From assembly GCA_046594445.1 (NCBI GenBank), contig JBKJSM010000075.1, positions 23,819 to 87,818 on the forward strand: a stretch of DNA of 64,000 bases. Direction: 5' to 3'. The DNA is from Gaiellaceae bacterium (GTDB lineage: Bacteria > Actinomycetota > Thermoleophilia > Gaiellales > Gaiellaceae). Under the pieces are notes generated by a model that was not told the DNA's origin, did not search any database, and was given only the letters and a program-made list of their open reading frames with translations. Below, in pieces: positions 1,017 to 63,997 of this stretch. The translations under genes and the position numbers were made by a program. Positions within the stretch are counted from its first letter, which is position 1; each line of letters opens with the position of its first letter.

Positions 1017-2990
1017 CTAGGAAGCGGTAGCGGCCGGCGTCGTCCCGGCGGGCTCGTCGAGCGACGTCCGCTCGACCTGGCGCGTCTCGTAGGCCTCGAG
1101 CACGTCGTCTTCCTTCACGTCGTTGAAGCCGTCGAGCAGGATCCCGCACTCGAAGCCCTCGGCGACCTCGCGCGCGTCCTCCTTGAACCGCCTCAGCTGG
1201 GAGATCGTGGTGTCGTAGATCACCGTGCCGTCGCGGACGACGCGCACCTGAGAGTTCCGCTTGACGATTCCCTGCGTGATCATGCAGCCGGCGATCGTGC
1301 CCAGGCGCGAGACCTTGAACAGCGCGCGCACCTCGGCCTCGCCCGTGATCTCCTCGGTCTGGACGGCGGAGAGCATGCCGACGAGCGCCTGCTCGATGTC
1401 CTCGGTGAGCTGGTAGATGACGCGGTAGGTGCGGATGTCGACGCCCTCGCGCTCGGCGAGCTGCCGCGCCTCGGTGTTCGGGCGGACGTTGAAGCCGACG
1501 ACGAGCGCGTTCGAGGTCGCTGCGAGCATGATGTCGCCCTCGGTGATCGCGCCGACGCCCTGGTGGATCACGTTGACGCGCACCTCGGGATGCTCGATCT
1601 TCGCGAGCTCGGACACCGCCGCCTCGACCGACCCGCCGACGTCGCCCTTCAGAATCATGTTCAAGTCCTGGACGGCGCCCGCCTGGAGGGCGGAGAACAA
1701 CGACTCGAGCGAGACACCGCTTTTCGAGCGCTGCGCCTGCTGCTCGGTGCGCAGCCGCTGCGCCCGGCGCTGGGCGAGGTTCCGGGCCTCGCGGTCGTCC
1801 TCGACGACGCGCGCCAGCTCGCCGGCCGGCGGCGGCACGTTGAAGCCGAGGATCTCGACCGGAGTGCCGGGGCGAGCCTCCTTGACCTTCTCGCCGCGGT
1901 AGTCGTAGAGCGCGCGGACCTTGCCGTGCGCGTCGCCCGCGACGATCGCGTCGCCCACCCGCAGCGTGCCGCGGTGGACGAGCATCGTCGCGACCGGGCC
2001 GCGACCGACGTCCAGGCGCGACTCGATGATCGGGCCGGAGGCGTCCGCGTTCGGGTTCGCCGTCAGCTCGAGCTCGGCGTCCGCGACGAGCAACACCTTC
2101 TCGAGCAGGTCGTCGAGGTTCGTCTTCTGCTTCGCCGAGACGTTGGAGAACTGGACGGTGCCGCCCCAGTCCTCGGGCTGGAGGCCCTCGGCGGCGAGGT
2201 CGGCCTTGACGCGGTCCGGGTTCGCGTCGGGCATGTCCATCTTGTTGACCGCAACGACGATCGGGACGCCGGCGGCCCGCGCGTGGGAGATCGACTCCTT
2301 CGTCTGCGGCATGACGCTGTCGTCCGCGGCGACGACGAGGACGGCGATGTCCGTCACCTTGGCGCCGCGGGCACGCATGGCAGTGAAGGCCTCATGGCCC
2401 GGCGTGTCGAGGAAAGTGATTTTGCGACCATTGACATCGGCCTGGTAGGCGCCGATGTGCTGCGTGATCCCGCCGGCCTCGGTCTCGACGACAGCCGCCT
2501 CGCGGATCGCGTCGAGCAGCGTCGTCTTGCCGTGGTCGACGTGGCCCATGATCGTTACCACCGGCGGCCTCGGCACGAGATCGGCCTCGGCGTCCTCGAA
2601 GACCTCCGGCACCTCTTCCTCGTCCGCGGCGTGCTTGATCGTGATCTCGCGGTCGAGCTCCGTCCCGATCAGCTCGACTTCCTCGTCGGAGAGCGACTGC
2701 GTGATCTGGATCATCTGGCCGAGCCCCATCATGATCTTGATGATCTGGACGGCGGGAACGCCGAGCAACTGCGAGAAGTCGCGCACCGAGACCCCCGACG
2801 GCACCGTCACGGGGCCGGTCGGCTGGACGATCTCGCGCGGCGGCGCCTTGGGCACGTCGCTGCGACCGCGGCCCTGGCGCGTGTCGCGCGGACGCTGGCC
2901 GCCGCTGTCGATCACGACGCGGCGCTTCCGGCCGGGCGCACCCTGGCGGGGGCGGATCGGGCGGTTGGGCTTGTTGGGCTCGTCAGCCAT
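1017..2990 (-). CDS. infB: translation initiation factor IF-2
   Basis: 657 aa. GTPase motifs VTIMGHVDHGKTTLLD, DTPGHEAF, NKMD. Basic N-terminus and C-terminal IF2 domains. Confidence 0.97.
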   Translation of the reverse strand: MADEPNKPNRPIRPRQGAPGRKRRVVIDSGGQRPRDTRQGRGRSDVPKAPPREIVQPTGPVTVPSGVSVRDFSQLLGVPAVQIIKIMMGLGQMIQITQSLSDEEVELIGTELDREITIKHAADEEEVPEVFEDAEADLVPRPPVVTIMGHVDHGKTTLLDAIREAAVVETEAGGITQHIGAYQADVNGRKITFLDTPGHEAFTAMRARGAKVTDIAVLVVAADDSVMPQTKESISHARAAGVPIVVAVNKMDMPDANPDRVKADLAAEGLQPEDWGGTVQFSNVSAKQKTNLDDLLEKVLLVADAELELTANPNADASGPIIESRLDVGRGPVATMLVHRGTLRVGDAIVAGDAHGKVRALYDYRGEKVKEARPGTPVEILGFNVPPPAGELARVVEDDREARNLAQRRAQRLRTEQQAQRSKSGVSLESLFSALQAGAVQDLNMILKGDVGGSVEAAVSELAKIEHPEVRVNVIHQGVGAITEGDIMLAATSNALVVGFNVRPNTEARQLAEREGVDIRTYRVIYQLTEDIEQALVGMLSAVQTEEITGEAEVRALFKVSRLGTIAGCMITQGIVKRNSQVRVVRDGTVIYDTTISQLRRFKEDAREVAEGFECGILLDGFNDVKEDDVLEAYETRQVERTSLDEPAGTTPAATAS

Positions 2991-35986: not shown

Positions 35987-36059
35987 GCGGGTGTAGCTCA
36001 GTTGGTAGAGCATCAGCTTCCCAAGCTGAGGGTCGTGGGTTCGAGTCCCATCGCCCGCT
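35987..36059 (+). tRNA. tRNA-Gly (anticodon CCC)
   Basis: Manual cloverleaf: acceptor GCGGGTG/CGCCCGC (one G-U pair), D arm GCTC/GAGC, anticodon stem TCAGC/GCTGA with loop UUCCCAA, T arm GTGGG-TTCGAGT-CCCAT. Confidence 0.9.
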
Positions 36060-43463: not shown

Positions 43464-44539
43464 TCCCCGAGTCGCTCGCTGACGGCCGCTATTCGCTCGA
43501 GCACCGGCTGGGACTCGGCGGGATGGCGGTCGTCCACCGCGCCCGCGACACCGCTCTCGACCGCCCCGTCGCCGTCAAGTTCCTCGCCGAGAGTCTGAAC
43601 GGCGACGACGGCCTGCGTCAGCGCTTCCTCCGGGAGGCGCGTTATGCAGCCAGGCTCTCCCACCCAAACGTCGTCGCGATCTACGACACGGGCGAGGAGG
43701 ACGGTCTCCCTTACATCGTGATGGAGTACGTCGACGGCGCCACCCTCGCCGACGAGCTCCACCGACGCGGGGCGCTCCCGCCGGGGGAGGTGGCAGCGCT
43801 CGGCCACCAGGCTTGCGCCGGCATCGCTCACGCTCACGAGGCCGGGCTCGTTCACCGCGACATCAAGCCCCAGAACCTGCTGCTGCGGTCTGACGGCACG
43901 CTCAAGGTCGCCGACTTCGGCATCGCGCGCGGCGGCGTCGGCTCGACGCTCACTCACGCCGGCACGCTGCTCGGCACGGCTGCGTTCATGGCGCCCGAGG
44001 TCGTGCGCGGCGAACAGGCCACGGTGACCGCCGACCTGTACTCGCTCGGCGCGGTGCTCTACGAGCTGCTCACCGGGACTCCCGTCAGGCGCGTCGACAC
44101 GCTCGCCGACCTGCTCGACGAGCAGGACATCCCCAGGCCGGCGGAGCTCACTTCGGACGTACCTCCGGAGCTCGAACGGGCGATCATGCACTGCCTCGAG
44201 CCCGAGCCCTCCCGCCGCCCGCAGACGGCCGCTTCGCTCGCGGCAGAGCTCGACGGCGCTGCGGCGGAAGCGCCGACGCGGCAGCGGGCGCAGACGATCT
44301 CGCGTCGGCCGACGGTGCCGCTTCGGCGTCCGAGGCGTGACGACGGTTTCTACCTGACACGTTCGCGAGCTCCCGTCTGGGCGGCGCTCGCGCTCGGTGC
44401 GATCGTGCTCCTGCTCGTGCTCGCGTTCAGCGGCAACGACGACCCGCCGCCGGCCCGGGTCGAGCCCGTACCGACCGGGTCGACACCGGCGGAGCAGGCT
44501 CGCAATCTCTCTGAGTGGCTGCGAGAGAACTCGCGCTAG
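43361..44539 (+). CDS. Ser/Thr protein kinase with C-terminal TM anchor
   Basis: GRYSLEHRLGLGGMAVVHRA, VAVK, HRDIKPQNLL, DFGIAR, APE, then TM PVWAALALGAIVLLLVLAF. Start ambiguous: ATG 43361 overlaps the upstream gene by 103 nt. The alternative is CTG 43460 (CTGA coupling, GAGGAAG 4 nt upstream). Confidence 0.85.
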   Translation: MRSGAGRGRGRGRGQAEEQGKGRRRRRKRRGRRLIPESLADGRYSLEHRLGLGGMAVVHRARDTALDRPVAVKFLAESLNGDDGLRQRFLREARYAARLSHPNVVAIYDTGEEDGLPYIVMEYVDGATLADELHRRGALPPGEVAALGHQACAGIAHAHEAGLVHRDIKPQNLLLRSDGTLKVADFGIARGGVGSTLTHAGTLLGTAAFMAPEVVRGEQATVTADLYSLGAVLYELLTGTPVRRVDTLADLLDEQDIPRPAELTSDVPPELERAIMHCLEPEPSRRPQTAASLAAELDGAAAEAPTRQRAQTISRRPTVPLRRPRRDDGFYLTRSRAPVWAALALGAIVLLLVLAFSGNDDPPPARVEPVPTGSTPAEQARNLSEWLRENSR

Positions 44540-45372
44540 AGGGCCGCGAGCTCGTCGGCGACCGCTGCTGCCAGGGGGCGCTCCGACGGGTCGGCCGCGA
44601 GCATCCGCACGATCAGAGCCTCCAGTGACGCGGGAACGTAGTTCGGCATGCGCTCGGGCCGCGACGCCAGCTGGGGAAAGCGCACGGTTCGGGAGTCGCT
44701 CGTCTTCGCGCCGGCGGGCCGTGGGAAGGGAACCTCGCCGGTGGCAGCGTAGTAGAGGGTCGCGCCGAGGCTCCAGACGTCCGCGGCAGGACCGACGCGA
44801 CTCCCGCCCAGGTCCGCAGCGCAGAGCTCCGGGGCCATGAACGCGTCCGTCCCGAACGGCGTCCTCAGCCGCGAAGCGCTCTCAGTCGAACGCGCAGCGC
44901 CCAGGTCGATCAGGCGCGAAGGATGGCCGAACACGACGTTGCTGGGCTTGACGTCCAGATGGACGACCTCTTCCGCGGCGAGGTAGTGGAGGACGCCAGC
45001 GAGCTGCTCGCCGGCCTCCAGCACGTCTTCGAACGAGAGCGGCCCCTCGTCCTTGACCAAGCGGCGAAGGTTGGGGCCGACGAGGTGCTCCAGCAGCAGG
45101 TGGGGAACCGGCCCGTCAAGGGTCGCGTCGAGGCCTCGCACGAGGAGGGGATGTGCGAGACGCCGGAGTAACTCGGCCTCGCGCCGGAGCTTTCGCAACG
45201 CAGACTCGTCGGCCAGGAGATCGGGCCGGAGGATCTTGGCGACCCCGAGCGCATATAGCCGCTCGTCCCAGACGAGGTAGACCTCGTAGCGCCTGCCCCC
45301 GCCGAGCAGCTCGACCACAGTGCGGGCCGCGACGATCGGCGCCCCTTCCTCGAAGCCCCAGCTGACCTTCAC
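44536..45372 (-). CDS. soluble Ser/Thr protein kinase-like protein (non-RD; HLD / DLG variants)
   Basis: From GTG 45372: VKVSWGFEEG...LLGGGRRYEVYL...VAKIL..., HLDVKPSNVV, LIDLGAA, FMAPE. No TM or sensor domain. Its stop overlaps the stop of the convergent kinase by 4 nt. Confidence 0.75.
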   Translation of the reverse strand: MKVSWGFEEGAPIVAARTVVELLGGGRRYEVYLVWDERLYALGVAKILRPDLLADESALRKLRREAELLRRLAHPLLVRGLDATLDGPVPHLLLEHLVGPNLRRLVKDEGPLSFEDVLEAGEQLAGVLHYLAAEEVVHLDVKPSNVVFGHPSRLIDLGAARSTESASRLRTPFGTDAFMAPELCAADLGGSRVGPAADVWSLGATLYYAATGEVPFPRPAGAKTSDSRTVRFPQLASRPERMPNYVPASLEALIVRMLAADPSERPLAAAVADELAAL

Positions 45373-45397
45373 ACGCCCTTGTCCCTTGCCGCGCTCT

Positions 45398-46504
45398 TCA
45401 CTCGGCGTCGGGCTCGACACCGTCGCTCGCGTCCGGGTAGTCGGCATCGTCGGTGTCGTCGGTGTCGTTGAGATCCTCGACCTCGTCGTCATCCTCCTCG
45501 GGCTCGACTTCTTCCCGCGCGAGCAGTGGGCGCTCGTCGCGGTCGTAAAGCTCTTCGGTTTCTTCCGCCTCATCGCGGTCGTCCGGCTCGTCGCGGTCGC
45601 CCTCATCCTCTCGAGCGTCTGACGGGACGCCCTCGTCATCGTCCTCGCCCTCGTCCTCTCGGCTCTCTGCCGCCTGAACCAGGCCGACGACCGACTGAAC
45701 CACGAATGCGGGCCGCGGTTTCGTCACCCGCTCGACCAGGGCCTTGGCGGGCGCCCGGGTCGGCTGCTCGAGCTCCCGTTCGGCGATCACGCCCGCCGAC
45801 CCGGCGACGCCCACGGTCGCGCCCGCGGCGGCGAGCTTCGCGGCAAGCGGGACTGCTGCGAGCTTTGCGAGGACTCCCGCCGTCGACGCCCCGCCGGCTG
45901 CGAAGCCAGGAATGGCATAAGCGAGCGAGTCGCGCAGCGCCAGTGGCACGACCAGCACCCCGGCCACGATCTCCGGACGAAGTCGCCTCTGCAGCTTCCG
46001 GCGACCGCGAAAGAGCAATGATTCGACCGCGGGGCGCGAGATGCCGAGCGCCCGCGCGACCTCGTCGTAGCGAAGGCCGTAGAGATCGCGCAAGACGACG
46101 GCCTCGCGTTGCTTTTCCGGGAGGGTGGCGAGCTCGTCCTGCAGCTCCGCCAGCTCCGCCCGTACGCTCGCCTGCTCCTCGAGGGTGGCCGATGCGGGCT
46201 CACGGTCGGCCGCGAGGCCGATTGGCCCCAACTGTCTCCTGGCGATCCGGTTGTGAGCCTCGTTCCTCGCGATCGTCCCCAACCAGGCGCCCGGATTGCG
46301 GGGCTCGGTCCCGGCGAGGAGGCTTCGGTAAGCGGAGAGAAAGACCTGCTGTGTGGCGTCCTCAGCCTCGTCGGAGTCCCGCAGCACGAGCCGGGAGACC
46401 CCGAGAACCATCCGTGCATGCTCCTCGTAGAGCGCCGCGAGGCGCGCGCCGGCCGCCCCGGGTGAGGGGCGGCGCGGCAGCGCGGTCGCGGAGTCCAGCT
46501 TCAC
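45398..46504 (-). CDS. ECF-type sigma-70 factor fused to a hydrophobic region and a long polyacidic tail
   Basis: 368 aa. Region 2 ...DAEDATQQVFLSAYRSL...GAWLGTIARNEA. Region 4 ...LPEKQREAVVLRDLYGLRYDEVARALGISRPAVESLLFRGRRKL. Then IVAGVLVVPLAL...AAKLAAAGATVGVAGSAGVIA, then about 100 aa rich in D/E. Confidence 0.8.
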   Translation of the reverse strand: MKLDSATALPRRPSPGAAGARLAALYEEHARMVLGVSRLVLRDSDEAEDATQQVFLSAYRSLLAGTEPRNPGAWLGTIARNEAHNRIARRQLGPIGLAADREPASATLEEQASVRAELAELQDELATLPEKQREAVVLRDLYGLRYDEVARALGISRPAVESLLFRGRRKLQRRLRPEIVAGVLVVPLALRDSLAYAIPGFAAGGASTAGVLAKLAAVPLAAKLAAAGATVGVAGSAGVIAERELEQPTRAPAKALVERVTKPRPAFVVQSVVGLVQAAESREDEGEDDDEGVPSDAREDEGDRDEPDDRDEAEETEELYDRDERPLLAREEVEPEEDDDEVEDLNDTDDTDDADYPDASDGVEPDAE

Positions 46505-58244: not shown

Positions 58245-60091
58245 CCCGCCCCGGTCTTGTGGAGCTGCGCGTAGATCGCCCGGGCGGTTTTCGCCGGCAG
58301 CCCCGGGACGCCCTCGAGCTCCTCCTGGCTCGCACCGATCACGCGCTCCGTCGAGCCGAAGTGCCGGAGCAGCGCCCGGCGGCGCGCAGGCCCGACGCCC
58401 TCGAGCGTGTCGAAGAGCGACTCGCGCGCGCGGGCCGAGCGCCGCTGGCGGTGGAAGCCGAGCGCGAAACGGTGCGCTTCATCCCTAACACGTTGGAGAA
58501 GCTGCAAGCCGGCGCTGTGCGAATCGAGCAGGATCGGCAGCGGCTCGCCCGGCAGGAACACCTCCTCGATCCGCTTCGCGAGCGAGATCACGGCGACGCG
58601 CGGGAGCTCGTACGCCTGCATCGCCGCGAGAGCGGCGGAGAGCTGGCCCTTGCCGCCGTCGATCACGACGAGGTTCGGCGCCGTCGCGAAGCCCTCGTCG
58701 TACTCGTCCTCGACCCCGGTGCGCAGGCGCGCGAACCGCCGCGAGACAACCTCGGCCATCGCGGCGAAATCGTCCTGCCCGTCGAGCCCGCGCACCCCGA
58801 ACTTCCGGTAGTGCGCCTTCTTCGGGATCCCGTCCTGGAACACGACCATGGAGCCAACGATCTCCTGTCCCTGGATGTTCGAGATGTCGAAGCACTCGAT
58901 CCGCAGCGGCAGGCTCTCCAGGTTCAGCGCCTCGCGCAGCTCCTCGAGCGCGTGCACGCGGCGGAGTTGCTTCTGCTCGGAGACGAGCGTCTCGGAGTCG
59001 AGCGCCAGGCGCGCGTTCTGTGCGGCCAGCTCCGCGAGCCGCCGCTTCTCGCCCCGAACCGGAGCCCGCACCTCGACGCGTGAGCCGCGCAGCTCGCTGA
59101 GGAACTGCTCGAGCGCCTCCAGCCCGGTCGCCTCGGTGGGCACGACGATCTGCGGCGGGATCGAAGGTGCGTTCCCGTAGTACTCCAGCACGAACGCCTC
59201 CAGGATCGCCGTCACGTTCTCGCCCTCGACGTTCTCGAGGTGGAAGCCGTGCCGGTCGACCATCTTGCCGCCGCGGAGCGGGAACACTTGCACCGCTGCG
59301 CGGTCTCCGGCGGCGGCGATCCCGATCACGTCGATCGACCCGGTCTCGCCGCGGTCGGCGCCCTGCTTCTGGGCCAGGTTCTCGATTGCGAACAGCCGGT
59401 TGCGGTAGCGAGCGGCGTCCTCGAAGCGCTCCTCCACAGCGGCCTCGCGCATCTGCCGCTGCAACTCGCGCACGATCGTCTTCGTGTCGCCGGAGAGGAA
59501 GTTGATCACGCTCTCGACGATCTCCCCGTAGGCCTCCTTCGAGATGTAGCCCACGCACGGCGCGTGGCAGCGCTCGATGTGGAAGTCAAGGCAGGGGATG
59601 CCCGAGTGCCGGCCCGGCTTCGGGCCTTCGCAGGGGCGGAACTGGAAGACACGGTTGAGCACGTCGAGGGTCTCTCGCACCTTCTTCGCGTTCGCGTACG
59701 GCCCGAAGTAGAGGACGCCGCGGCGGTGCCGCTCCCGCGTGAACATCACGCGCGGGTACTCGTCGCCGATCGTGACGCAGATGTAGGGGAACGACTTGTC
59801 GTCGCGTAGGCGGACGTTGAACGGGGGCCGGTGGCGCTTGACGAGGTTCTGCTCCAGATGGAGCGCCTCGACCTCGGTCGAGGTGACGATCACCTCCAGG
59901 TCGGCGATCCGCGGCACCATGCGCGGGATCGACGAGCGCGTGTCGCTGCTCCCCGACTGGAAGTACGAGCGCACGCGCGGCCGCAGCGACTTTGCCTTGC
60001 CGACGTACAGCACGTCGCCGCGCTCGTCGCGGAAGAGATAGACGCCCGGCTTGGCCGGCAGTCCCTTCAGCTTGTCTCGAACGTCGGCCAC
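58241..60091 (-). CDS. uvrC: excinuclease ABC subunit C
   Basis: From GTG 60091: VADVRDKLKGLPAKPGVYLFRDERGDVLYVGKAKSLRPRVRSYF (GIY-YIG). UVR domain, RNase H-like domain, and C-terminal (HhH)2. Confidence 0.95.
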   Translation of the reverse strand: MADVRDKLKGLPAKPGVYLFRDERGDVLYVGKAKSLRPRVRSYFQSGSSDTRSSIPRMVPRIADLEVIVTSTEVEALHLEQNLVKRHRPPFNVRLRDDKSFPYICVTIGDEYPRVMFTRERHRRGVLYFGPYANAKKVRETLDVLNRVFQFRPCEGPKPGRHSGIPCLDFHIERCHAPCVGYISKEAYGEIVESVINFLSGDTKTIVRELQRQMREAAVEERFEDAARYRNRLFAIENLAQKQGADRGETGSIDVIGIAAAGDRAAVQVFPLRGGKMVDRHGFHLENVEGENVTAILEAFVLEYYGNAPSIPPQIVVPTEATGLEALEQFLSELRGSRVEVRAPVRGEKRRLAELAAQNARLALDSETLVSEQKQLRRVHALEELREALNLESLPLRIECFDISNIQGQEIVGSMVVFQDGIPKKAHYRKFGVRGLDGQDDFAAMAEVVSRRFARLRTGVEDEYDEGFATAPNLVVIDGGKGQLSAALAAMQAYELPRVAVISLAKRIEEVFLPGEPLPILLDSHSAGLQLLQRVRDEAHRFALGFHRQRRSARARESLFDTLEGVGPARRRALLRHFGSTERVIGASQEELEGVPGLPAKTARAIYAQLHKTGAG

Positions 60092-60097
60092 GTGGGC

Positions 60098-60104
60098 TAG
60101 CGTA
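60098..60104. promoter_or_regulatory. bidirectional -10 heptamer TAGCGTA (uvrC / hydrolase-like paralog)
   Basis: Plus strand: TAGCGT, 7 nt, then GTG 60111. Minus strand: TACGCT, 7 nt, then GTG 60091. The spacer is 19 bp. Confidence 0.5.
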
Positions 60105-60110
60105 GCCAGC

Positions 60111-61532
60111 GTGAGACGGGGCTTCTGGGCCGCTCTGGCGGTGTTCCTGCTGGCGCCGGTCGCGCAGGCGGGCGGCCCGTCGCTGACCCTGGGCGCGGCC
60201 GAGGACGTCGTTCGCAGCGCATCGCCGACGGAGGCGAAGGCGAACATGACGCTGTTGCGCCTGGCGGGCTTTCGGGCCGTCCGGATCACGTCGAACTGGC
60301 TCCCCGGCCAGACCGAGCCGACCGCCGCCGAGGCGGGGGTCCTGCGCAACGTCTCCGCCGCCGCCGCTCTGAGCGGCGTCGAGGTCTATGTCTCCGTCTA
60401 CCACCCCGGCTCCCGGACGACGCCGCTGTCGACCGAGGCGCGGGGCGAGTTCGCCTCCTACGCCGCTGCCCTCCTGCGCGCCAATCCCTCCTTTCGGCAG
60501 CTGATCGTCGGCAACGAGCCGAACCTCAACCGCTTCTGGCTGCCTCAGTTCGCGGAAGACGGCAGCGGCGCATCGGCGCCCGCCTACTTCGCGCTCCTCG
60601 CCGAGACCTACGACGCGGTCAAGGTGGCGTCCCCCGGCGTGCGGGTCTGGGGCGGGGCGCTGGCGCCTCGCGGTGTCGACCGCCCGAACACGGGCCGCGA
60701 CACGATCTCCCCCACCCGCTTCATCCGCGAGCTCGGGGCCGCTTACAGGGCGAGCGGGCGGACCGCGCCGGTGATGGATGGCTTCGCCTTCCACCCATAC
60801 CTGGAGAACTCGAGCCGCCCGCCCGACGCGAAGCCGTTCGACGCGGATCACCTCGGCCTGGTCGACTACGGCAAGCTCGTCGCCCTGCTCGGGCAGGCGT
60901 TCGACGGCACGGCGCAGCCGGGCTCGGCCCTGCCGATCCTCTACGACGAGTTCGGCGTCGAGGCGGTCGTGCCCCCGGAGAAGGCCGGTCTCTACACCGG
61001 GGCGGAGCCCTCGACCACGCAGCCCGTGGACGAGGCGAAGCAGGCGAGCTACTACCGGCGGGCGCTCCAGCTCGTCTTCTGCCAGCCGAACGTGACCGGG
61101 ATGCTGCTCTTCCACTCGCACGACGAGACCGCGCTCGCCGCGTGGCAGTCGGGGGTCTACTACGCGGACGGCACCGCGAAGACGAGCCTGATCCCCGTTC
61201 GCAGAGCGCTCGCCGACGCTCGCGGCGGCTCGATCGCGCGCTGCCCCGGTTTGGCGCTCCCGCTCGCACCAACGCTGACCTTCGACCTGCGGACGCGCTC
61301 GATCAAGTTGCGGTGCGATCTCGACTGCGTCTATCGGGCGCGGATCGTCAAGCTCCCCGGTCTCTCGACGACGTCCGCGAAAAACGGCCTGCTCGCCGCA
61401 GAGACGCCGGCTAGCATCGCCCTCGCGCGCAACCTCCGCAAAGGCCGCTACCGGCTGACCGTCAGCGTCGTCCACCCCGTCAACCCGGCGACGCCAGTCG
61501 TTCGCGAGAGTGCGACCCTGACCGTACGATAG
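60111..61532 (+). CDS. secreted TIM-barrel glycoside-hydrolase-like protein (paralog of 25263..26798)
   Basis: From GTG 60111: VRRGFWAALAVFLLAPVAQAG... ...LIVGNEPNLNRFWLPQF... aligns by eye with ...YIVGNEANQPAFWRPQF... in the paralog. The C-terminal beta-rich modules are similar. Confidence 0.78.
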   Translation: MRRGFWAALAVFLLAPVAQAGGPSLTLGAAEDVVRSASPTEAKANMTLLRLAGFRAVRITSNWLPGQTEPTAAEAGVLRNVSAAAALSGVEVYVSVYHPGSRTTPLSTEARGEFASYAAALLRANPSFRQLIVGNEPNLNRFWLPQFAEDGSGASAPAYFALLAETYDAVKVASPGVRVWGGALAPRGVDRPNTGRDTISPTRFIRELGAAYRASGRTAPVMDGFAFHPYLENSSRPPDAKPFDADHLGLVDYGKLVALLGQAFDGTAQPGSALPILYDEFGVEAVVPPEKAGLYTGAEPSTTQPVDEAKQASYYRRALQLVFCQPNVTGMLLFHSHDETALAAWQSGVYYADGTAKTSLIPVRRALADARGGSIARCPGLALPLAPTLTFDLRTRSIKLRCDLDCVYRARIVKLPGLSTTSAKNGLLAAETPASIALARNLRKGRYRLTVSVVHPVNPATPVVRESATLTVR

Positions 61533-61536
61533 AGCC

Positions 61537-62238
61537 GTGAGCACCGTCCCTCAGGGCCAGTACGTGGCCTACAGCTTCCACAAGCTCGACCCGGCCTGGC
61601 GGCGGCTGCCCGTCGAGGAGCGGGCGGCGATGAAGGACGCGTTCGCGGAAGTCGTCGAGAGCTGGAGTGAGCGCTTCGAGCACTTACGCGCCTACTCCAC
61701 AGCGGGCGTCCGGCCGGACAGCGACTTCTTCCTCTGGAAGATCACCGAGCGCTACGGCGACCTCGGCGAGCTCGGGGCGGCGCTGAACGGCACGCCGCTC
61801 GCCGGCTGGCTCGAAACGCCCTACTCGTATCTCGCGACGACGAAGGCCTCGACGTACACGCAGGCGCGGAAACCTCGCAAGATCGTCCCCAAGGGCTCGC
61901 CCTACCTCGTCGTCTATCCGTTCGTGAAGGTGCGACCTTGGTACGCGCTCTCGCTGGAAGAGCGGCAGCGCGCGATGGACGAGCACATCCGCGTCGGTCG
62001 CGAGTTCGAGACGATTCACAACCACACGACCTACTCGTTCGGGATCGACGACCAGGAGTTCATGACGGCGTTCGAGTGCGACGAGCCGTCCGACTTCATG
62101 CACCTGATGCTGACGCTGCGCGAGAGCGAGGCTTCTGCGTACACCGAGCGCGACACGCCGATCTTCGTCGGCGAGGGGATGCCCATCCGCGCCGCGCTCG
62201 ACGTGCTGGACGGCGCCTCAGCGCAAGTCCGCGCGTAG
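61537..62238 (+). CDS. hemQ: chlorite-dismutase-family coproheme decarboxylase (HemQ/ChdC)
   Basis: 233 aa: ...YVAYSFHKLDPAWRRLP..., ...VYPFVKVRPWYALS..ER...M.EHI..G..., ...FGIDDQEFMTAFE. Confidence 0.88.
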   Translation: MSTVPQGQYVAYSFHKLDPAWRRLPVEERAAMKDAFAEVVESWSERFEHLRAYSTAGVRPDSDFFLWKITERYGDLGELGAALNGTPLAGWLETPYSYLATTKASTYTQARKPRKIVPKGSPYLVVYPFVKVRPWYALSLEERQRAMDEHIRVGREFETIHNHTTYSFGIDDQEFMTAFECDEPSDFMHLMLTLRESEASAYTERDTPIFVGEGMPIRAALDVLDGASAQVRA

Positions 62239-62795
62239 TGCGGCGGCTTTGGCCCCTACTCCTGGTCGTGCTGGCGCTCGGCGCTTGCGGCGGCGCAGAC
62301 GAGCCGGCCCCACCCTCGGCCGCGCAGGCTTCCGGCGTCAAGGAGCTCGCAAACATCCTCGACCTGCGCTCGGACTTCGAGGCGGATGCGGAGAAGACCC
62401 GCGTCATCATTCTCTTCTCGCCCACTTGAGGCACCTGCCTCGCCGGCGCCCGTTGGGTGCGGGAGAACCTCCTCGACAAGGAGCAGTCCCAGGAGCTGCG
62501 GCTGTACGTCGTCTGGCTCAACCAGCGCTCGACCGACGCCCGCGACACGATCGACGACTCGACGCTGGCCGACCCACGCGTGACGCAGTACTGGGACGGC
62601 GAGGGGATCACGGGCACGTACTTCGCAGAGTCCGATCTCGGCGGCCTCGGCTACTCCGGCTTCGTCTACGACGTCTATTACGTCTTCGGGGCCGACGCGA
62701 TCTGGGCGAAGGACCCGGCGCCGCTGGCCGGCTCGGGCGGGCCGGTAGTCCACGAGGGCGAGAAGCTCCTCGCCGCGCTCAGAGCTCAGCTGTAG
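62238..62795 (+). CDS. thioredoxin-fold lipoprotein with in-frame TGA (62427-62429) at the first position of a UxxC motif; candidate selenoprotein, alternatively a disrupted gene
   Basis: The tail of ORF 61938..62429 and ORF 62457..62795 are in the same frame, separated only by the TGA. Joined product: VRRLWPLLLVVLALGAC(lipobox)...KTRVIILFSPT-U-GTCLAGARWVRENLLDKEQSQELRLYVVWLN... GTG start overlaps the hemQ stop (TAGTG). Confidence 0.5.
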
Positions 62796-63160
62796 GTGTG
62801 CTCCTGGCGCCAGACCCGAACGGCCGCGAAGACGCAGGCACCGAGCACGAGGAAAAACGCGAGCGCGTCCGGCCCTGACGGCCGCAGGCCGATGAAGGCT
62901 CCCACGTCCACGACCGCGAGCACGATCGCCGCGTAGAACACGTTTCGGCTCCGATCCGGCCAGGCCTCGATGTCGCTCCGCCGCTCGCGCCAGATCAGGA
63001 AGACGAAGAACGCGATCGCGAGGAAGAACGCGATCCGGAGCAGGCCGCCGATCGTGGCGAGCACCGGCTCGAGTGAGAGCACCACGACGACGAGCGCGAT
63101 CAGCCCGATGATCAGGAAGCCGCGCAGGGTCGCGTTCATCTCGGTGAAGAAGCGCTTCAT
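62786..63160 (-). CDS. small polytopic membrane protein, unknown function
   Basis: From ATG 63160: MKRFFTEMNATLRGFLIIGLIALVVVVLSL... About 4 hydrophobic segments. ATGA-coupled to the upstream gene. Confidence 0.65.
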   Translation of the reverse strand: MKRFFTEMNATLRGFLIIGLIALVVVVLSLEPVLATIGGLLRIAFFLAIAFFVFLIWRERRSDIEAWPDRSRNVFYAAIVLAVVDVGAFIGLRPSGPDALAFFLVLGACVFAAVRVWRQEHTYS

Positions 63161-63510
63161 CCGGTCATGAATGCTCGCACGGCGAGCGCGGCGGCGACGA
63201 GCGACGTGCCGGCGAACCAGAGCAGTCGCTTCGGACCCTCGCGCGGCGCGTACATCCACGGCGCGAGGATCGCCCCGAGCGCGAGCGAGCCGTAGACGTA
63301 ATGGAGCTCCTCGGCGGCTTTACCGTCGTCGGCGAGGAGGAGCAGGCCGAGCGCGACCTGCGCGACCAGGAGCGTCTGCGCGAGCGCGAGCAGGTTCGCG
63401 ACGAGGCGCCCGGCTAAGCGTCGCCGCCAGTAGACGAGGCCGCCTACGAGCGCCGCCAGAGCGGGCACGCCCACCACCAGGAAGGCGAGAAAGGCGTGCG
63501 CGGATAGCAT
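63157..63510 (-). CDS. small polytopic membrane protein, unknown function
   Basis: 117 aa: MLSAHAFLAFLVVGVPALAALVGGLVYW... About 4 hydrophobic segments. Confidence 0.6.
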   Translation of the reverse strand: MLSAHAFLAFLVVGVPALAALVGGLVYWRRRLAGRLVANLLALAQTLLVAQVALGLLLLADDGKAAEELHYVYGSLALGAILAPWMYAPREGPKRLLWFAGTSLVAAALAVRAFMTG

Positions 63511-63523
63511 CGGGTCACCCTAG

Positions 63524-63997
63524 ATGAGAGGAGAGTTCGTGGTCGAAGAAGGCAAGGCCGCGCCGGACTTCGAGCTGACGAGCGACGCCGGCGAGACCGT
63601 GAAGCTATCCGATCTGCGTGGCCGGACGGTCGTCCTCTACTTCTATCCCAAGGACGACACGCCCGGCTGCACGGCCCAGGCGTGCGGGATCCGGGACGCC
63701 TGGGGCGAGTTCGAGCGCGCAGGTGCGGTGGTGCTCGGCGTCAGCCCCGACGACGAGAGCTCTCACGTGGCGTTCAAGCAGAAGTTGGACCTCCCGTTCC
63801 CGCTCCTCGCCGACACCGAGCACGAGACCGCCGACGACTACGGCGTCTGGGTCGAGAAGAAGTACGCCGGCACGACGTACATGGGCGTCGAACGCTCGAC
63901 GTTCGTGATCGACGCGGACGGCAACGTCGCGAAGGAATTGCGGAACGTGAAGCCGGACACTCACGCCGACGACGTCCTGGCGGCTCTCTCCTCCTGA
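63524..63997 (+). CDS. bcp: thiol peroxidase Bcp (peroxiredoxin Q type)
   Basis: 157 aa: ...APDFEL....G..V.LSDLRG..VVLYFYPKDDTPGCT.QAC..RD. Confidence 0.92.
   Translation: MRGEFVVEEGKAAPDFELTSDAGETVKLSDLRGRTVVLYFYPKDDTPGCTAQACGIRDAWGEFERAGAVVLGVSPDDESSHVAFKQKLDLPFPLLADTEHETADDYGVWVEKKYAGTTYMGVERSTFVIDADGNVAKELRNVKPDTHADDVLAALSS

Follow-up and report, generated by a model that had tools for sequence, protein, structure and literature searches.

The 64-kb stretch of DNA analyzed here (the window) very probably carries, at 62238–62795, one gene for a selenoprotein, and the UGA beginning at 62427 is almost certainly a selenocysteine (Sec) codon. Its product belongs to a family of thioredoxin-like, membrane-tethered proteins that had not been catalogued before and is common in soil Gaiellaceae and Acidobacteriota. 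The gene predicts Sec decoding in Gaiellaceae, a family of actinobacteria that is dominant in soil and poorly cultured, and the public copies that were found (240 proteins) are either Cys forms or truncated entries labeled 'hypothetical protein'.

One reading frame and its predicted product

Direct reading of the window sequence places a GTG at 62238, the TGA at 62427–62429 and a TAG at 62793–62795 in a single shared frame. The preliminary description of two open reading frames split only by an in-frame TGA was accurate, and all of the features that it described were found where it had placed them. The complete candidate gene (62238–62795, forward strand) comprises 185 codons including the UGA and would encode a lipoprotein with a thioredoxin-fold domain; the joined translation of the read-through product is VRRLWPLLLVVLALGAC...KTRVIILFSPT*GTCLAGARWVRENLL..., and its active-site motif is SPT-U-G-T-C. 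The predicted Sec codon (62427–62429, forward strand) provides position 1 of U-G-T-C, and the resolving Cys that closes the UxxC motif, encoded by TGC at 62436–62438 on the same strand, is invariant across the family. Further downstream lies a family signature, DPRVTQYWD (62571–62597, forward strand), which spans the predicted loop before strand β3 as well as β3 itself, and of which the residues D, P, R, V, T and Q are invariant in a diverse alignment (A4). In the structural model of the Cys homolog P0001 described below, strand 115–120 comes after P113, and the Pro of the signature may be a cis-proline.

At the N terminus, a lipoprotein signal peptide, VRRLWPLLLVVLALGA, and its lipobox Cys (TGC, 62286–62288) can be read directly from the sequence at 62238–62288 of the forward strand. 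Judged by eye, the window sequence RR-LWPLLLVVLA-LGAC conforms to the bacterial lipoprotein pattern of a signal peptide followed by a lipobox, [LVI]-x-[GAS]-C, and the Gaiellaceae orthologs, also read by eye, retain the motif L-A-G/A-C-G-G (LAGC or LAAC). This conservation of the lipobox supports the lipoprotein nature originally claimed for the product. The pre-protein would leave the cytoplasm, receive a lipid at Cys17 and remain anchored to the external side of the cytoplasmic membrane.

Conservation of the in-frame TGA

A TGA occupies exactly this position in the species genomes of 35 of 35 Gaiellaceae, one other member of the Actinomycetota and 16 Acidobacteriota, amounting to 52 of the 55 species genomes that could be scored; the remaining three (L037–L039) have Cys. 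The same is true of 75 of 75 metagenome contigs, and recurrence on this scale far exceeds chance. The frame is kept across the TGA in >120 independent sequences, and neither TAG nor TAA is ever found at the recoding site among them. TGA is an ordinary stop in the window, where the 29 confident open reading frames end in TAG (16), TGA (11) or TAA (2), yet TAG, the commoner codon, is absent from the recoding site.

Cys is found in the UGA column not only in L037–L039 but also in P0001 and in 46 database proteins, and many Terracidiphilus proteins (194 residues) are uninterrupted, with Cys aligned to the UGA. P0001 is a full-length Cys homolog with the motif SPTCGTC and is 77% identical to the Sec form L094, the closest Sec/Cys pair. 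The question of what orthologs carry at this column, which the preliminary description had raised, is therefore answered: it is either TGA or Cys. As had been proposed, the stop coincides with the N-terminal Cys of CxxC, where helix 1 of the thioredoxin fold begins. Values of dN/dS are 0.29 upstream and 0.36 downstream of the TGA, and purifying selection acts on both halves of the gene. This selection also counts against a pseudogene, which together with a sequencing or assembly error of TGC or TGT can be regarded as effectively refuted already, with next to no probability left to it. Frameshifts elsewhere in the gene do occur in several nanopore-derived genome bins (L031–L035, L056), but most copies are free of any other disruption, and the identical TGA recurs in assemblies that many studies produced independently and on many platforms.

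Every public annotation divides the locus in two. In the window, gene callers report a 112-residue open reading frame (62457–62795, forward strand), an artefactual truncated call whose GTG start lies inside the hairpin described below; 194 of the 240 database homologs are fragments of 101–143 residues that start a few residues past the TGA, none contains U, and in L057 and L058 a separate upstream open reading frame of 72 residues has been called. Taken at face value, this layout would mean two genes, one for a secreted lipopeptide of 63 residues that stops at TGA 62427, the other for an independent 112-residue protein, and GTG 62457 could indeed serve as a start codon. We give this interpretation a very slim chance. 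No purine-rich Shine-Dalgarno sequence precedes GTG 62457, which bears out the earlier remark that the downstream part has none of its own, and the 27 nt from the TGA to the GTG retain both frame and protein sequence (GTCLAGARW). Moreover, Cys-form homologs run unbroken through the junction, a split would sever the thioredoxin fold between strand 1 and the active-site helix, and the exclusive use of TGA as the stop in >120 sequences is a further point against it. A family profile would mend hundreds of such calls, in soil metagenomes as well as in soil genomes.

A conserved hairpin downstream of the UGA

A SECIS-like hairpin, CC.GCGCC[C GUU G]GGUGC.GG, begins 13 nt downstream of the UGA (62443–62463, forward strand). 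Its core, GCGCCC-GUU-GGGUGC at 62446–62460, is the element named in the preliminary description and stands as a conserved SECIS candidate, extended to 62443–62463 by a lower stem; the alternative pairing of 62431–62435 with 62456–62460 offered at the same time was not recovered in the alignment fold. The upper stem has 5–6 bp and the lower 2 bp, the apical loop CGUUG (62451–62455) lies 21 nt past the UGA, and the folding energy is −13.2 kcal/mol, a modest gain in stability over shuffles (z = −2.2) in a sequence of 70% GC. Published bSECIS criteria describe a loop of 3–9 nt with G in the first two loop positions, a stem of 4–16 bp, a distance of 16–37 nt from the UGA and an energy ≤ −7.5 kcal/mol (PMC13188914), and the window hairpin agrees with all four.

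The consensus fold of 34 aligned sequences recovers the hairpin, and across 65 distinct sequences 87% of cells are paired. The covariation score for the latter set is 0.105, compared with 0.062 in shuffles, and 0 of 500 shuffles reach 0.105; the covariation is limited to a few pairs, among them 21:33 (CG in 44, UA in 5 and GC in 2), where 14 of the 65 sequences need a register shift, and 22:32 (GU in 61 and GC in 4). Synonymous divergence is 2.6-fold lower within the hairpin than in the rest of the gene (0.22 versus 0.57), and 28 of 29 sequences use a rare CGT codon that keeps the loop residues G26-U27. In the Acidobacteriota, a hairpin with another sequence, its start exactly 11 nt past the UGA, likewise conforms to the bSECIS description, with a stability no better than that of shuffles (z about 0). 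The conserved hairpin is absent from the Cys-form loci examined. No relevant Rfam match was obtained for the site at thresholds as loose as E = 10, and a 5′ mini-hairpin that includes the UGA (62428–62441) was dropped, its conservation being confined to Gaiellaceae.

Decoding of the UGA

By the proposed mechanism, SelB carrying Sec-tRNA(Sec) would bind the hairpin and insert Sec at the UGA. Genes for this machinery were sought by tblastn with Escherichia coli SelA, SelB and SelD against the window and all related loci, and by ARAGORN for tRNA-Sec in the window and the first 56 loci; neither tRNA-Sec nor any of selA, selB and selD turned up in the window (64 kb) or the ~1.3 Mb of related loci so covered. 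The tblastn match in the window is IF2 (1017–2990, minus strand) rather than a sel gene, and the one weak match to SelB, in L056 (27% identity across 232 residues), is presumed to be another translational GTPase. The window and the Gaiellaceae loci yielded no further selenoprotein candidate, a composition-based scan for in-frame TGA having returned only adjacent genes in the same frame. Documented users of Sec include other Actinobacteria (Rubrobacter) and Acidobacteria (PMC1794560; PMC12013277), and a full-text literature search turned up no paper connecting Gaiella or Thermoleophilia with its use.

The UGA might instead be recoded, with the help of the SECIS, to Cys by a SelC*-type tRNA(ReC), which would make the mature product a CxxC protein of the ordinary kind. 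Such a tRNA has been reported to read UGA as Cys, given a downstream SECIS, in some soil and sediment lineages (PMC13582414), and the evidence gathered here fits insertion of Sec and of Cys alike. It is, however, rare, occurring in about 2% of ordinary Sec-type genomes and mostly beside a canonical tRNA-Sec (PMC13582414). The retention of a costly UGA and SECIS across three phyla, though TGC is one mutation away, would also be hard to explain without some benefit from selenium, and we consider the chance of Cys insertion to be slim.

Fold and relationship to known families

The AlphaFold model of the Cys homolog P0001 (pLDDT 88, pTM 0.81) has the order β-α-β-α-β-β-α, in which strand 54–60 is followed by C64-x-x-C67 and helix 65–79, with the CxxC at the helix N-cap. 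Foldseek matched it to CcmG (1kng), DsbE (3gl3), DsbF (3ios), ResA (1st9) and GPx (2p5q) with E about 1e-4; all of its significant PDB matches are thioredoxin-fold proteins, which places the protein in that superfamily. The TlpA/ResA-like thioredoxin fold suggested in the preliminary description is thus favored by the model, the closest solved structures being CcmG, ResA, DsbE and DsbF.

Sequence comparison, in contrast, assigns the protein to no family, with no match in Pfam at E up to 1 or in NCBIfam at E up to 10, whereas PDB sequence profiles gave only thioredoxin and glutaredoxin matches, all below threshold. It does not fall within AhpC-TSA, Redoxin or Thioredoxin_8, which are matched by just 2 of 141 cluster representatives, probably via extra domains. 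With TlpA, ResA and CcmG (DsbE), the family has in common its predicted tethering to the membrane and extracytoplasmic location, a thioredoxin fold with an N-terminal β-α extension and a dithiol motif that caps the N terminus of helix 1, and the best Foldseek matches in this group (1kng, 3gl3, 3ios, 1lu4 and 1st9) have E values of 1e-4 to 1e-3 and TM scores of 0.5–0.6 on the target. It differs from them in having SPT-[U/C]-x-x-C in place of W-C-x-x-C, and in its own invariant signature, DPRVTQ[FY]WD; sequence identity to the solved structures is 10–21%.

Several families of UxxC thioredoxin-like bacterial selenoproteins have been catalogued, among them the thiol:disulfide interchange proteins (PF13098), Prx-like oxidoreductases (PF00578), Redoxin (PF08534), SaoT (NF040730), the HUIPC-motif family (NF047660) and the UGC-containing TlpA family (cd02966). 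As in these, Sec replaces the N-terminal Cys of CxxC, Sec and Cys forms coexist, and the SECIS lies directly 3′ of the UGA (PMC13188914). The defining Pfam and NCBIfam models nevertheless fail on the window protein, and the CDD-defined families were compared only indirectly. The table of 119 families in a 2026 review (PMC13188914) does not include the window family, and none of the Pfam or NCBIfam models behind these 119 catalogued prokaryotic selenoprotein families matches the protein.

The neighborhood in Gaiellaceae

Immediately upstream, hemQ (coproheme decarboxylase of the chlorite dismutase family; 61537–62238, forward strand; Pfam Chlor_dismutase, 5.4e-54) ends in a TAG that shares 1 nt with the GTG of the selenoprotein gene (TAGTG), an overlap that may couple translation of the latter to that of hemQ. 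In all 72 Gaiellaceae-type loci for which upstream DNA is available, hemQ ends 180–216 nt ahead of the TGA. On the downstream side, the ORF list contains a small membrane protein of ~124 residues from an internal ATG (62786–63160, minus strand), convergent with the selenoprotein gene and overlapping its 3′ end, in an arrangement repeated in L057 and L058. A second small membrane protein (63157–63510, minus strand), with 117 residues and no Cys, is conserved beside the gene, its homologs lying 736–1279 nt downstream of the TGA in 50 loci; neither of the two has a match in Pfam or NCBIfam. Then follows bcp (peroxiredoxin Q/AhpC-TSA; 63524–63997, forward strand; Pfam AhpC-TSA, 1e-43), which begins 729 nt downstream of the selenoprotein gene in the window and lies 1.1–3.9 kb downstream in 34 loci. 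Pfam matches confirm both neighbors that the preliminary description had named, the overlapping hemQ and bcp some 0.7 kb away.

The Gaiellaceae branch thus sits in a fixed housekeeping context, hemQ-X-bcp, where X is the family member. The redox theme originally ascribed to this context holds insofar as adjacency to hemQ is universal in Gaiellaceae, but relatives in other phyla point to mercury and soft-metal systems. The invariant coupling to hemQ suggests that heme synthesis is tied, in a way not yet explored, to a redox or metal protein outside the cytoplasm.

Relatives in metal operons and possible function

In L064 and L036 the gene order is merB, arsR, merA (TIGR02053, 589 bits), X in its Sec form and a membrane protein, whereas 10 Sec-form Acidobacteriota loci and the Cys-form Terracidiphilus locus L062 have the order merR-like, DF family NF049942, merT-like, X. 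The MerT-like part is fused to X in some loci (L043 has the fused MerT-like domain only), and among the 141 cluster representatives HMA is present in 17 and MerT in 3. One actinobacterial clade constantly pairs X with a polytopic membrane protein that has two Cys motifs, whether mer genes are present or not. Taken together, the mer operons, the MerT-like proteins that accompany X or are fused to it and the HMA fusions tie the family at large to the handling of thiophilic metals. A new selenoprotein family is thereby linked to mercury and soft-metal operons, which offers a testable case of why selenium might be preferred to sulfur outside the cell. Membership of a mer operon is seen only in relatives (L036, L064 and the acidobacterial cassettes) and not for the window gene: no MerA, MerB, MerR, ArsR or MerT-like homolog lies within 10 kb of it or of the gene in any Gaiellaceae locus, nor is there an HMA or CcdA-like neighbor. 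For Gaiellaceae the link to metals is thus an extrapolation, made from relatives with 30–40% identity.

The U-G-T-C center would be expected to alternate between the selenol/thiol and selenenylsulfide states, as in TlpA, ResA and CcmG, and to act either as a reductase for the cysteine pairs of extracytoplasmic and membrane proteins or directly as a soft-metal ligand exchanging with them. As regards function only, the domain could be chiefly a binder of Hg(II) and other soft metals outside the cytoplasm that hands them on, a thioredoxin-fold replacement for MerP rather than a reductase, with the Gaiellaceae copy as a constitutive metal scavenger. We regard this as a serious possibility that is nonetheless somewhat improbable. 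In its favor, the domain occupies the position of MerP, fused behind a MerT-like three-helix domain, to true MerT (3 representatives) or to HMA (17), and directly downstream of merA; relatives are under MerR-type or ArsR-type metalloregulators; and, as a matter of general chemistry, Hg(II) is bound more tightly by selenolate than by thiolate. Against it, the closest structures (CcmG, ResA, DsbE) are reductases, the two-Cys-motif membrane partner of the actinobacterial clade, with or without mer, resembles a CcdA-ResA electron relay, and the Gaiellaceae context lacks any metal genes. TlpA-type reductases service metal-site cysteines, so metal contexts are no proof of metal binding. Like MerP and MerTP, the family has a CxxC-type pair outside the membrane and, in relatives, membership of a mer operon or a C-terminal fusion to a MerT or MerT-like transporter; the fold of MerP is, however, the ferredoxin-like HMA fold and that of the window family the thioredoxin fold, some relatives having an additional, separate HMA domain.

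A broader proposal, which we consider rather doubtful, is that the window gene is the founding member of a large family of thioredoxin-fold proteins (~3,100 clusters at 50% identity) that no existing model covers and whose Sec forms are extracytoplasmic selenol handlers of Hg(II) and other soft metals, selenoprotein replacements for MerP with MerT-like or CcdA-like membrane partners, and that Sec decoding is universal in Gaiellaceae. If true, Sec decoding would be a universal and so far unreported trait of these abundant soil bacteria, upheld by a housekeeping gene coupled to heme synthesis.

Two neighbors of the relatives may be recorded here. The 292-residue membrane partner in L064, which had no Pfam, NCBIfam or PDB match, resembles CcdA/DsbD by eye only. 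NF049942, the DF family (seleno)protein that the deep-Sep study named hypothetical protein DF, precedes the window-family member by two genes in the acidobacterial merR-like cassette. It is small, has a weak DUF2703 match and is known with either Sec or Cys; it represents a separate family, with 108 residues, a CPNH motif and no signal peptide, and all copies seen here are Cys forms.

Sequence and conservation of the recoded gene

The thioredoxin-fold lipoprotein gene at 62238-62795 (+) is a genuine UGA-recoded gene, and on comparative sequence grounds its UGA most probably encodes selenocysteine. Exactly as the preliminary description had it, two ORFs are split only by TGA 62427-62429, a single frame running from GTG 62238, which overlaps the preceding TAG stop as TAGTG, to TAG 62793-62795. 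The read-through product opens with the lipobox-bearing signal peptide VRRLWPLLLVVLALGAC, and its core reads ...KTRVIILFSPT-[TGA]-GTCLAGARWVRENLL.... TGA is otherwise an ordinary stop in the source genome (GC content 70%), because 11 of the 29 confidently coding ORFs of the window end in it, the others ending in TAG (16) or TAA (2). Two more TGA codons flanked on either side by in-frame, stop-free sequence of high GC3, at 45620 (+) and 46519 (-), sit where opposite-strand ORFs overlap (44536-46504); they seem to be adjacent or shadow frames, not selenoprotein genes.

A first protein search, with the joined window protein as query and U written as C, yielded 227 homologs, nearly all of them 112-residue "hypothetical proteins" beginning at a GTG or ATG just past the TGA. 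One full-length homolog among them, P0001 (185 residues), has the junction SPTCGTC. A profile-based second search recovered many uninterrupted Cys forms of 194 residues, such as that of Terracidiphilus (SPTCPVC), along with far more numerous truncated calls. The family is mis-annotated throughout public data, and none of the 240 database proteins retrieved contains U. Orthologs bear either TGA or Cys at the aligned position, in keeping with the selenoprotein first proposed.

When each GTDB species was scanned through a single genome, 56 loci were recovered, one of them truncated by the end of its contig. In-frame TGA at SPT*xxC was present in all 35 Gaiellaceae loci, with protein sequence kept on both sides, in one other Actinomycetota genome bin and in 16 Acidobacteriota loci; the three loci with Cys belong to Phycisphaerales, an unclassified bin and Thermoanaerobaculia. 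Metagenomic contigs with a scorable site had TGA in 75 of 75 cases, and neither TAG nor TAA occurred there in these contigs or the species-scan loci. The nearest pair of Sec form (TGA) and Cys form shares 77% identity across 157 residues. In a comparison of 29 Gaiellaceae sequences, the 32 codons 5' of the TGA have a dN/dS of 0.29 and the part 3' of it 0.36, with synonymous divergence of ~0.55 alike upstream and downstream, and both halves are therefore translated in one frame.

Several nanopore-derived "MFD" genome bins (L031-L035 and L056) carry frameshifts or extra stops within the gene; these are probably homopolymer assembly errors, and some lineages could hold pseudogenes. Stops a short way upstream of the TGA were seen in L054 and L055.

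A candidate SECIS element

In the consensus model of a bacterial SECIS, a 4-16 bp stem is capped by an apical loop of 3-9 nt with G at one of its first two positions (pattern N1-G-[G/U]-N-N2), the UGA-to-loop distance is 16-37 nt and the folding energy is <= -7.5 kcal/mol (Zhang et al. 2026, PMC13188914). The hairpin at 62443-62463 (+), CC.GCGCC[CGUUG]GGUGC.GG, fits this model, with a loop of the form N1-G-U-N-N2, 21 nt from the UGA, and -13.2 kcal/mol, bearing out the earlier suggestion that a hairpin just 3' of the UGA is compatible with a bacterial SECIS. Its stability against shuffles (z = -2.2) is only modestly unusual for GC-rich RNA. It is the consensus fold across 34 actinobacterial sequences, and standard pairs fill 87% of pair cells in 65 distinct sequences, where the covariation score of 0.105, a signal from few positions in related sequences, compares with 0.062 in shuffles and was reached by none of 500. 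Pair 21:33 is C-G (44), U-A (5) or G-C (2), and the 14 sequences in which it is broken refold via a shifted CCGG/CCGG register; pair 22:32 is G-U (61) or G-C (4). Several compensating changes are synonymous, including GGC to GGG (Gly) and GTG to GTC (Val). Synonymous divergence is 0.22 at codons +4 to +12 vs 0.57 in the remaining gene, and 28 of 29 sequences retain the loop U, through the codon CGT.

The Acidobacteriota hairpin differs (GCGGGG-GGC-CUCCGC, starting exactly 11 nt past the UGA); it shows one compensatory change, G-C to A-U, and stability no greater than that of shuffles. In the three loci of Cys form that were examined, the conserved hairpin is missing from the matching position. 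At 62428-62441 another small hairpin, GAGGC-ACCU-GCCUC, includes the second and third bases of the UGA. Most Gaiellaceae copies are predicted to form it, but it is weaker in those with Ser for Gly+1, and the other actinobacterial clade has lost it.

Identity of the inserted residue

The original observation and its selenoprotein interpretation are both supported, by TGA or Cys at the site, by dN/dS in both halves, by the hairpin and by the fold. Since tRNA(ReC) is reported to insert Cys in a SECIS-dependent manner (PMC13582414), the UGA could in principle be decoded as Cys; sequence alone does not separate the two residues, and we consider this reading highly improbable beside selenocysteine. 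Sec use is documented in other Actinobacteria, e.g. Rubrobacter, and in Acidobacteria (PMC1794560, PMC12013277), and our literature search found no report of it in Gaiellales. Neither selA, selB, selD nor tRNA-Sec was found in the window or in ~1.3 Mb of related loci, and no second selenoprotein candidate was seen in the window or the Gaiellaceae loci. A 98-nt ARAGORN call at L035:8664-8761 (-), labelled tRNA-Gly(ccc), is not a tRNA-Sec; the tRNA-Gly(ccc) of the window (35987-36059) is far shorter, at 73 nt, and the longer call may be an assembly artefact or contain an intron-like insertion.

Fold and family

An AlphaFold model of P0001 from a 49-sequence alignment (pLDDT 88, pTM 0.81) has the thioredoxin fold, extended N-terminally by a beta-alpha unit. 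After strand 54-60 comes C64-x-x-C67, which caps the N-terminus of helix 65-79, so the TGA does fall at the N-terminal redox Cys of a thioredoxin-like fold, as had been proposed. Foldseek against the PDB returned thioredoxin-fold proteins only, the top matches being CcmG, DsbE, DsbF, ResA and glutathione peroxidases (E ~1e-4, TM 0.45-0.6, 10-21% identity).

The family is a new one among the UxxC thioredoxin-fold selenoproteins, which are a known class. No Pfam-A or NCBIfam model matched the protein, even at permissive thresholds. The 119 prokaryotic selenoprotein families tabulated in the 2026 review each carry an identifier from Pfam, NCBIfam, CDD or PANTHER (PMC13188914), and because none of their Pfam or NCBIfam models matches, the family appears uncatalogued, CDD-defined entries having been compared indirectly only. 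An exhaustive profile search at E <= 1e-3 recovered 3,110 clusters (50% identity), 1,995 of them with E <= 1e-10; the family has the signature F...R...S-P-T-[U/C]-x-x-C ... W ... D-P-R-V-T-Q-[FY]-W-D ... W-D ... W.

Genomic context and possible role

The reported neighbours are both present: hemQ (+; Pfam Chlor_dismutase, 5e-54) overlaps the gene start, and bcp (AhpC-TSA, 1e-43) lies 729 nt downstream. Coupling to hemQ is invariant in Gaiellaceae, its end lying 180-216 nt 5' of the TGA, and so abutting or overlapping the start, in all 72 loci that include upstream DNA. Downstream, 50 loci encode a small conserved membrane protein on the opposite strand, and bcp is 1.1-3.9 kb away in 34. The wider neighbourhood is one of housekeeping genes (gap, pgk, tpi, iPGM, uvrC, ogt), and no mer or cytochrome-maturation genes were found in ten ORFs scanned at 47.6-61.5 kb or by whole-window tblastn. 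Directly 5' of hemQ, a 493-residue ORF (60051-61532, +) has a signal-peptide-like N terminus and no Pfam match at E <= 1e-5.

Relatives of the gene give an unexpected tie to mer operons. In a second actinobacterial clade (L036/L064) the Sec-form gene, which encodes a lipoprotein, comes straight after merB, a regulator gene of the ArsR/SmtB type and an authentic merA (TIGR02053, 589 bits vs cutoff 454). The gene after it encodes a polytopic membrane protein of 292 residues in which two Cys motifs occur; L066 and L067 have this pair without mer genes. The membrane protein, of 292-295 residues (L064:8358-9236, L036:10473-11348, L066:6345-7232), contains NPCGFALVPAYLG and LGCTLPLF, has no match in Pfam, NCBIfam or PDB and looks, by eye, like either a thiol relay of CcdA/DsbD type or a novel transporter for Hg.

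In Acidobacteriota, a merR-like metalloregulator of the MerR family, a DF family (seleno)protein (above the NF049942 cutoff; all copies Cys, "CPNH" forms) and a MerT-like CC-motif membrane protein precede the thioredoxin-fold gene in a conserved cassette. It occurs in 10 Sec-form loci (L040, L044, L046-L052, L056; ~1.2 kb 5' of the thioredoxin-fold gene) and in the Cys-form Terracidiphilus locus (L062:6893-9047), where a 122-residue CC-motif protein follows. As merA is absent, the cassette seems to be a metal-handling module not described before. Some acidobacterial loci encode the MerT-like domain in a gene of its own, others as an N-terminal fusion to the thioredoxin-fold protein; in L043 the fused domain alone was seen. 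Among 141 cluster representatives, 17 have an HMA domain and three a true MerT domain. Together, the mer operons, MerT-like cassettes and HMA/MerT fusions tie the family to thiophilic-metal systems.

These associations fit either of two roles. The protein could be a reductase of TlpA type, holding the cysteines of metal sites or transporters in the reduced state, as favoured by its structural neighbours (CcmG, DsbE, ResA) and its membrane-protein partner. The position of the fusion to MerT favours a direct MerP-like metal carrier, a possible though less likely role.

The Phycisphaerales protein has two domains of this family plus HMA. Two very long Planctomycetota-type ORFs, L037:2919-5144 (717 residues from the first Met, as scanned) and the longer reading frame L038:7856-10930, each contain two such domains (STCPAC, SPTCGGC), HMA and a weak C-terminal Thioredoxin_3.
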